Positions 14,041 through 14,354 of a stretch of DNA of 64,000 nt are shown here, piece after piece (positions within the stretch are counted from its first letter, which is position 1; each line of letters opens with the position of its first letter). The notes under the pieces are model-generated. The model saw only the letters and a program-made list of their open reading frames with translations. It had not been told where the DNA came from and searched no databases. Source of the DNA: an uncultured delta proteobacterium (GTDB lineage: Bacteria; Myxococcota_A; Polyangia; Polyangiales; Polyangiaceae); the NCBI GenBank assembly GCA_963841435.1, contig CAWJCS010000004.1:800001-864000 (forward strand), in the 5' to 3' direction. A program made the translations under genes and the position numbers.

Positions 14041-14119
14041 CCGCGTGACGACGCCGTCCGGGCGCGAGAGGAGAGGGACGGACGGCGCGCACGCGGAGAC
14101 GCGGAGCCATGACGGCTCC
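14041..14119 (-). terminator. Two intergenic stem-loops between the nifK stop and nifE
   Basis: CCGCGTG..CGCCGTCCG / CGGACGGCG..CACGCGG (14041-14096) and GGAGCC-N5-GGCTCC (14103-14119); no clear U-tract. Confidence 0.45.
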
Positions 14120-14235
14120 TAGCGGGTGAGATCGAACGAGATGTCGGTCTCGCCCGCCGTGTCGGTTGCCCGATCGAGATCATCGAAGATGCGGTCGAGG
14201 ATGCGGACCAGCACCTGCAGTCCCCCCTGGTAGCC
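14119..14235 (-). pseudogene. nifK: nifK 3' remnant (last 38 codons)
   Basis: Manual translation GYQGGLQVLVRILDRIFDDLDRATDTAGETDISFDLTR* resembles the alphaproteobacterial NifK C-terminus; lies directly upstream of nifE. Confidence 0.85.
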
Positions 14236-14354
14236 CCGAGATGCTTCGCCCGCTTCTTCGCCGTCTTCTCGGGGTAGGCTTCAAGGACCTCCTTGATCAG
14301 GTTCTCGTGGAATTCCTTGTCGTTCTGGTAATCGATCGTCTTGATGACGCTCAT
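14235..14354 (-). pseudogene. nifD: nifD 5' remnant (first 40 codons)
   Basis: [40 protein letters not shown] is a NifD N-terminus; GGAGG RBS after nifH. Confidence 0.85.

Follow-up and report, generated by a model that had tools for sequence, protein, structure and literature searches.

Can a genome that carries a canonical nifH gene, with further nif genes and their promoters around it, belong to an organism that is unable to fix nitrogen? The question is raised by a 64,000-nucleotide stretch of DNA, hereafter the window, which occupies positions 800001-864000 of one contig (G000:C4:800001-864000) in the genome of an uncultured delta proteobacterium of the family Polyangiaceae (assembly GCA_963841435.1, here G000). 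The assembly amounts to 7.78 Mb in 6 contigs, with a completeness of 95% and a contamination of 2.7%. A first reading of the bare sequence, which we refer to as the original prediction, had proposed that nifD and nifK were deleted from an otherwise retained nif cluster in this window, such that the start of nifD is fused to the end of nifK. We find that the locus is probably a dead remnant of a nifHDKENX operon of the Defluviicoccus type that was recently inactivated by deletions, and that its carrier is almost certainly a nifH-positive non-diazotroph.

Remnants of nifD and nifK Meet in a Short G Run

The five intact nif clusters closest to the window (L014-L018) were picked for comparison by a NifH search. 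Three of them (L014-L016) come from Defluviicoccus sp. SSA4 (CP058705; L014), Defluviicoccus SCELSE-4 and the Rhodospirillales metagenome-assembled genome (MAG) MAXAC.378. In CP058705 and in L015-L016 the genes follow the order nifA-nifB-fdxN-nifZ-nifT-draG-draT on one side and nifH-nifD-nifK-nifE-nifN-nifX on the other. The window shares with L014-L016 the order and orientation of genes on both sides of nifH and the divergent promoter region between draT and nifH, and the sequences are close (93-94% amino acid identity for NifH; 84% nucleotide identity for nifH and 76-77% for nifE). In contrast to these three clusters, the window has nifE without its last ~36 codons, lacks nifN, nifX and all that lies beyond them, and is short of 2.9 kb of nifDK. 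The host genomes also differ in size, with 7.8 Mb for the one studied here versus 3.3-4.4 Mb for relatives of the L014-L016 type.

The remnant of nifD consists of its first 40 codons (14235..14354, minus strand), which begin with an ATG at 14354 preceded by a ribosome-binding site. Positions 1-24 of the nifD model TIGR01282 match the window at 14229-14300 (E 0.024), NifD of Defluviicoccus SSA4 finds the remnant by tblastn with an E value of 2e-16, and blastn aligns 132 nt of the region to the nifH-nifD junction of SSA4 with 87.9% identity. The remnant of nifK, on the same strand, comprises the last 38 codons and the stop (14119..14235), and its frame from 14235 down to 14119 reads GYQGGLQVLVRILDRIFDDLDRATDTAGETDISFDLTR before the stop codon. 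Here, the nifK model TIGR01286 (516 positions) matches through its positions 479-516 at 14122-14235 with an E value of 7.9e-8 against the whole genome, and blastn aligns the same stretch to L015-L018, L020 and L024. The two sets of alignments overlap in a GGGG run (14234..14237, minus strand), where the junction sequence is AAGCATCTC-GGGG-CTACCAGGGGGG (CTC-GGGG-CTAC). Profile, blastn and tblastn searches thus place the 40 nifD codons, the 38 nifK codons and the run between them exactly where the original prediction had put them.

Around nifH, the gap is the only departure from collinearity between the window and the five closest clusters. Window positions 15287..14234 correspond to 9887..10964 of L016, and positions 14235..14115 to 13876..13995, so that 2,911 bp are missing relative to L016; relative to L017 the figure is ~2,993 bp. 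The loss, put earlier at ~2.8 kb, is therefore ~2.9 kb by alignment. Two contigs assembled from public sequencing runs of ~90%-identical relatives (X1 record 4 and X2 record 12) span the 5′ end of nifE and the 3′ end of nifK up to exactly 14237, beyond which both run on as intact nifK (in reverse complement, ..HHRFPTW before GYQG). Since they leave the window at precisely this position, they give the position of the breakpoint without recourse to the database genomes.

We infer that a single illegitimate recombination, possibly assisted by microhomology, brought nifK codon ~474 next to nifD codon 40 at the G run, which would have removed the ~2.9 kb from nifD codon 41 through nifK codon ~474. 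Microhomology, as had been suggested, may have been involved: the GGGG aligns to both sides and no long repeat is present. Relatives read CTC/GCG or CTG/GGC on the nifD side and TGG/GGCTAC on the nifK side, which allows 0-3 shared nucleotides, as judged from these relatives in place of the window's own lost parental sequence. A repeat search found no repeats at either this breakpoint (14234-14237) or the second one described below (12706), and there is no mobile-element gene among the Pfam matches of the window. Programmed excision of a nifD element, which occurs in heterocystous cyanobacteria, was considered as a candidate and rejected: no inserted element or recombinase is present, and sequence has been lost rather than restored.

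The join had also been described as out of frame. As assembled this is correct, because nifD codon 40 ends at 14235, the nifK codon GGC begins at the same base and the 236-nt remnant is thus one base short of being in frame. However, the frame at the junction cannot be trusted, because the assembly is rich in 1-nt insertions and deletions, frameshifts rpoB and rpoC as well, and has homopolymers of four and six G on the flanks of the junction. In the sequence as it stands, the nifD start opens a 533-codon open reading frame (ORF; 12807-14408, minus strand) that runs through the nifK remnant and the spacer out of frame and then enters nifE in frame. This ORF is probably a coincidence, as it hinges on exact homopolymer lengths.

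nifE Is Cut Short and nifN and nifX Are Absent

The cluster is not otherwise retained, as had been proposed, since the 3′ end of nifE, nifN and nifX are gone as well. The nifE gene (12706..14000, minus strand), which PF00148 matches in three frames owing to frameshifts near 13529, 13155 and 12862, is truncated ~36 codons before its stop. In all five closest relatives the similarity to nifE ends at 12706-12708, ~36 codons ahead of their own nifE stops, and a public-run contig from one related organism diverges from the window at 12705. Beyond this second breakpoint lies a spacer of 150 nt (12555..12705) that has no similarity to the nifE 3′ end, nifN or nifX of the relatives. In each of the five relatives nifN directly follows nifE, as detected with TIGR01285, while this model has no match at E<=10 anywhere in G000; tblastn with NifN, NifX and the ORFs downstream, as taken from the relatives, likewise finds no match anywhere in that genome. 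In Defluviicoccus SSA4 (L014 14079-17366), nifE and nifN form one open frame of ~1,095-1,099 codons, which may be a natural fusion or a sequencing issue, there being an ambiguous base nearby in the locus.

On the side where nifN and nifX would be expected, a cluster for sugar nucleotides and polysaccharides on the same strand takes their place. It includes a PF02348 cytidylyltransferase (11694-12569, minus strand) and two Polysacc_synt_2 (PF02719) dehydratases or epimerases (8330-9619 and 9582-10649, both minus strand), all assigned by Pfam and apparently intact. The stretch 8330-12569 also holds an ORF of ~330 amino acids without a Pfam assignment, and glycosyltransferases lie further to the left. 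A second deletion or replacement at 12706 would account for this arrangement: together with the nifE 3′ end it would have taken away nifN, nifX and anything beyond them, and it would have brought in the polysaccharide cluster.

No terminator-like site was found on the minus strand between the nifH promoter and the polysaccharide cluster. It is conceivable, if highly improbable, that the locus has been rewired, with the transcript from the nifH promoter reading through the scar and the truncated nifE into the cluster at 8330-12554 while NifH, NifB and DraTG are kept for a role outside nitrogenase. Were this so, a surface-glycan pathway would be under nitrogen and oxygen control.

The Genome Holds No Other Nitrogenase

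Whether the missing subunits are encoded elsewhere was addressed by searching all of G000 with profiles for PF00148, TIGR01282 (nifD), TIGR01286 (nifK) and TIGR01285 (nifN), the first of which covers NifD, NifK, NifE and NifN together with their Vnf and Anf counterparts. PF00148 matched only the three pieces of nifE. The 6 contigs contain no second nifD or nifK and no vnf or anf gene by PF00148, TIGR01282 and TIGR01286, which speaks against the earlier suggestion of a second nifDK or an alternative nitrogenase elsewhere in the genome. NifU-proper and NifV gave no match that reached the cut-off in G000. The locus is therefore, as predicted, nifH-positive without genes for the MoFe protein, of which only the remnants of nifD and nifK persist. 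Because the genome holds no other nitrogenase, neither the MoFe protein nor the NifEN scaffold can be made.

It is very unlikely that a second nitrogenase (nifDK, vnfDGK or anfDGK), together with nifN, lies in an unassembled or unbinned fraction and fixes N2 with the nifH of the window. The completeness of the assembly is 95% and not 100%, and some bacteria do keep nifH apart from nifDK (termed T2-nifH in the classification outlined in PMC8597730). Nevertheless, none of the four profiles matches outside the nifE pieces and the scar, the scar itself shows that this locus once held nifDK, and of 46 further genomes in the genus only one has nifH.

Retained nif Genes and Their Promoters

Besides nifE, the genes that the original prediction had listed as remaining (nifH, nifB, fdxN, nifZ, nifT, nifA and draTG) are all recognisable by Pfam, tblastn and frameshift-aware alignment. 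The nifH gene (14395..15296, minus strand) is of the canonical cluster-I kind. PF00142 matches it in two frames on account of 1-nt insertions near 15161 and 14455, PF00142 and TIGR01287 both identify it (362.6 bits for the longest in-frame piece), and it is full length once the two frameshifts are corrected. Over 234 in-frame amino acids, NifH is 94% identical to that of SSA4 (L014), followed by 93% for both L015 and L016, 86% for L017 and 84% for L018. Divergent from nifH on the plus strand are draT (15583-16462, 6 frameshifts) and draG (16501-17387, 2 frameshifts), which encode regulators of NifH by ADP-ribosylation and are represented by the PF07357/PF03747 pair, each matched in three frames.

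Further along, tblastn with the L014 proteins locates nifZ-nifT (17831-18399), fdxN (18366-18555, 1 frameshift) and nifB (18655-20165, 12 frameshifts), all on the minus strand, and the Pfam matches in this region are PF04319, PF06988, PF00037 and PF02579. Despite its 12 assembly frameshifts, nifB is recognisable at full length, with 67% identity to L014 NifB and no in-frame stop. The last gene of the series is a frameshifted nifA (20351..22066, minus strand) with GAF, sigma-54 AAA+ and HTH_8 domains, found as Pfam pieces in three frames and by alignment to L015 NifA.

NifA sites conform to the consensus TGT-N10-ACA, and sigma-54 promoters to a -24/-12 consensus. A motif search with these patterns recovered the four NifA sites that had been predicted and four sigma-54-type matches, one more than the three claimed. 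The nifH promoter (15355..15497, minus strand) combines a sigma-54 match, TGGCACAGGCCTTGC, at 15355-15369 with NifA sites at 15453-15468 and 15482-15497, and the nifB promoter (20228..20336, minus strand) has its sigma-54 match at 20228-20242 and NifA sites at 20302-20317 and 20321-20336. The other two sigma-54-type matches lie upstream of draT (15573-15587, plus strand) and of nifA (22193-22207, minus strand). The window contains 6 TGT-N10-ACA sites versus 3.25 expected by chance, four of which form the two pairs upstream of nifH and nifB.

Two groups of neighbouring genes deserve mention. Between draG and nifT lies an ORF of the dodecin family (PF07311; 17475-17783, minus strand), whose position is kept in L014 and L016 as judged by DNA similarity. 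Adjoining the nif remnant on the other side, the stretch 22470-30101 holds two sets of TRAP transporter genes (DctP, DctQ, DctM) and a regulator of the Rrf2 family (27428-27928), all frameshifted, together with an SBP_bac_11 periplasmic binding protein and an ABC ATPase with a TOBE domain, likewise frameshifted. The latter set resembles a molybdate or sulfate uptake system.

Frameshifts Probably Reflect the Assembly and Codons Are Preserved

The abundance of frameshifts in these genes could suggest that they are decaying, so they were counted with a protein-to-DNA alignment written to allow frameshifts. The counts are 2 for NifH, 3 for NifE, 12 for NifB, 1 for FdxN, 2 for NifZT, 2 for DraG, 6 for DraT and, by alignment to L015 NifA, 9 for NifA, one of the last in an N-terminal stretch whose alignment is doubtful. 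Most of the 37 shifts (31) consist of one surplus base in the window. As a control, the same alignment applied to the relatives' own nifB DNA gave 0, 0 and 2 shifts, and contigs of relatives differ from the window by 1 nt at the frameshifts at 12861, 13527/13529, 14456 and 15162/15165.

Housekeeping genes are affected in the same way. When the pyruvate dehydrogenase genes of the window were aligned with the proteins of the congener G016, they showed 1, 1 and 6 shifts, seven of the eight being single extra bases, and outside the window rpoB and rpoC are broken into 4 and 3 pieces, respectively (G000:C3:1310142-1318438). Within the window, genes split by frameshifts include those for citrate synthase (3 pieces), recR, ctaA, lexA, moeA and motA, as well as pdhA, pdhB, the gene for the E2 component of pyruvate dehydrogenase, lpd, lipA and cinA (in the stretches 30166-31500, 33911-34726, 43263-44691, 49380-50092, 50359-51781 and 53795-62375). 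Because the same kind of breakage, mostly by an added base, affects rpoB, rpoC and the genes for pyruvate dehydrogenase, the simplest reading is that the numerous 1-nt frameshifts are insertion-type consensus errors of a long-read-style assembly and not pseudogenisation. It follows that the present assembly gives no ground for calling the retained genes pseudogenes.

After correction of the frame, no in-frame stops are present in NifH, NifE, NifB, FdxN, NifZT, DraG or DraT, and the single one in NifA lies within the uncertain upstream part of its alignment. We also counted private changes, that is, substitutions carried by one sequence at columns that are otherwise invariant or nearly so, on the frame-corrected sequences. 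Stitched tblastn matches had been tried for NifB and NifA and were dropped in favour of the frameshift-aware alignment, as out-of-frame stretches inflated their private changes. The window's NifH has no private change in 174 columns (81 sequences), NifB 2 in 142 (32 sequences), DraG 2 in 104 (22 sequences), DraT 1 in 75 (22 sequences) and NifZT 2 in 60 (8 sequences), all inside the range of the other sequences. For NifA the comparison comprised only 2 sequences and is hence uninformative on private changes. NifE has 7 in 111 columns, one of the seven beyond the breakpoint, which is the highest among 68 sequences, the others having at most 5 with a median of 0. For nifB in particular, 12 shifts accompanied by no stop and by just two unusual substitutions would be a very strange pattern for a decaying gene, so that decay is unlikely and its frameshifts are probably errors. 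The loss of nifDK would thus be recent, because the retained codons show no decay at the level of substitutions.

Such preservation could also be expected if NifH, NifB and the remainder of NifE were still selected for an Fe-S or cofactor role other than N2 reduction. NifH, NifB, DraT and DraG are free of stops and of excess private changes once the frame is corrected, and the promoters and NifA sites are intact. Yet we regard this retained or new function as extremely improbable. A NifH-NifEN-NifB system, the form in which it had first been put forward, would lack its scaffold, as nifN is absent and NifE is without its C-terminus. NifE, moreover, carries the most private changes, the conservation is accounted for just as well by a recent deletion, and the same architecture was found in no other genome by the NifH search, the search for the scar pattern or the survey of 46 genomes of the genus.

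Is the Deletion a Property of the Genome or of the Assembly?

The reading of the locus as a recently inactivated operon presupposes that the assembly reflects the real genome, and independent data were therefore sought. Contigs were examined from four of five matching public runs, each of which contains a fraction of 0.05-0.06 of the words searched for. Their content proved to be ~90%-identical relatives and short pieces rather than the window's strain. No contig of the four runs shows this strain with intact nifDK, and a degenerate pattern for the NifD N-terminal peptide of the lineage had 0 matches in a metagenome contig collection. The public-run contigs neither confirm nor refute the deletion.

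Several observations weigh against a real and very recent loss. No contig of the four runs bridges 14237-14269 in the deleted form, and the exact junction pattern, with the length of the G run left free, had 0 matches in the metagenome contig collection. NifE, with its surplus of private changes, hints mildly at relaxed constraint and hence at a loss that is not so recent. Furthermore, frameshifts are denser in nif genes (2.2 per kb in NifH, 2.3 in NifE, 6.8 in DraT and 8 in NifB) than in the controls (~0.6 in rpoBC and ~1 in PdhA and PdhB), so either no other part of the window is as poorly resolved or some of the shifts are real. The density is patchy along the window, with no detectable errors at 1-12570, many at 12.7-31.5 kb, few at 31.5-49 kb and many again at 49-62.4 kb, and GC content does not follow these clean and dirty stretches. 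The switch from clean to dirty coincides with the breakpoint at 12706, where it could mark a change in coverage, a change of strain or a mis-join in the assembly. Patchiness of this kind is expected from low or mixed coverage at the nif remnant, for example in a strain-variable stretch, and uneven polishing could also be its cause.

It is thus possible, although unlikely, that the nifHDKEN(X) operon is intact in the dominant genome and that the gap, and maybe the join at 12706, stems from aberrant reads, a minority variant or a mis-join. The indel density of the nif region, the highest in the window, is what very low or mixed coverage would produce; the boundary at 12706, the lack of an independent contig with the scar and the absence of substitution-level decay, which an intact operon would show too, fit this explanation as well. 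However, the junction cleanly joins sequences of the same strand that lie 2.9 kb from each other, no repeat that could have misled an assembler is present, and long-read assemblers do not normally drop unique segments of 2.9 kb. An artefact would also have to account for two separate lesions within one operon and for the fact that none of the 6 contigs, in an assembly with 95% completeness, carries nifD, nifK or nifN. We therefore favour real deletions in the genome of the organism.

nif Genes in Related Genomes

Within the genus, 46 genomes besides G000 were searched for nifH, and a single one (G002) has the gene; the 45 negatives include the unpublished G046. The distribution of nif in the genus is thus sporadic. 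The nifH of G002 is 77% identical to that of the window at the DNA level, versus 84% for Defluviicoccus, and the nif copy of the window may have been acquired horizontally, to judge from sequence comparison. A 19-kb DNA query for synteny in the genus returned almost only paralogues of the sigma-54 activator.

A region of 7.4 kb with pyruvate dehydrogenase genes and lipA (55000-62400) reaches at most 70% DNA identity among 12 genomes of the same genus, and PdhB has 55-64% protein identity to that of G016, which is very divergent for one genus. On another contig (C6), second and divergent copies of recR (48% identity), lipA, a pdhB-like gene and an lpd-like gene were noticed (560154-560597, 1184119-1189284, 1035438-1037664). 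Two recR genes in one genome are unusual, and they may point to a second replicon, to paralogy or to some contamination of the bin.

Discussion

Genomes that carry nifH without nifD and nifK have been described as having a T3-nifH, a category that comprises 236 RefSeq genomes, 57.6% of them Clostridia, in the account of Mise et al. 2021 (PMC8597730). As the category is outlined there, the genome studied here falls within it, having no nifDK, vnfDK or anfDK in a 95%-complete assembly, while its nifH is not a pseudo-nifH in the sense of a divergent NifH-like paralogue, given 94% identity to the Defluviicoccus protein and no private change in 174 columns. Two further features distinguish the locus, namely that its nifH adjoins a visible deletion scar and that other nif genes are present. 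The T3 cases, by contrast, are reportedly divergent NifH-like paralogues and not deleted operons, and the canonical nifH of the window would be unlike them in this respect.

A comparative survey of Nif core genes is said to have been made by Dos Santos and colleagues in 2012. The set nifHDKENB is used as the minimum for calling a diazotroph (PMC8399215; PMC11773926), and Defluviicoccus sp. SSA4 is listed with a complete Nif core (PMC11773926). The same source catalogues partial sets, among them lineages with NifHDKB or NifHDKEB and genomes with NifH only, from 33 species. By the minimal set the present genome fails, since nifH is present but nifD and nifK are remnants, nifE is incomplete and nifN is absent. 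Compared with the partial genomes as catalogued in that source, it retains nifH, nifB and part of nifE, with nifD, nifK and nifN lost by identifiable deletions.

What we describe is ordinary gene loss, a new instance of the known event in which a deletion ends diazotrophy, seen in a draft genome rich in errors. Frameshift-rich MAGs from long reads can mimic pseudogenisation, and the apparent decay of nifH, nifE, nifB and nifA vanishes here because the rpoB, rpoC and pyruvate dehydrogenase controls behave alike; pseudogenes should be called only after the genome has been polished. For surveys of nifH by amplicon or metagenome sequencing the locus is a caution, as its carrier would be counted as a false diazotroph, for example in wastewater communities, the home of the closest (Defluviicoccus) clusters. 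Above all, it offers a clean and datable example of a canonical cluster-I nifH persisting in a genome that is unable to fix nitrogen.

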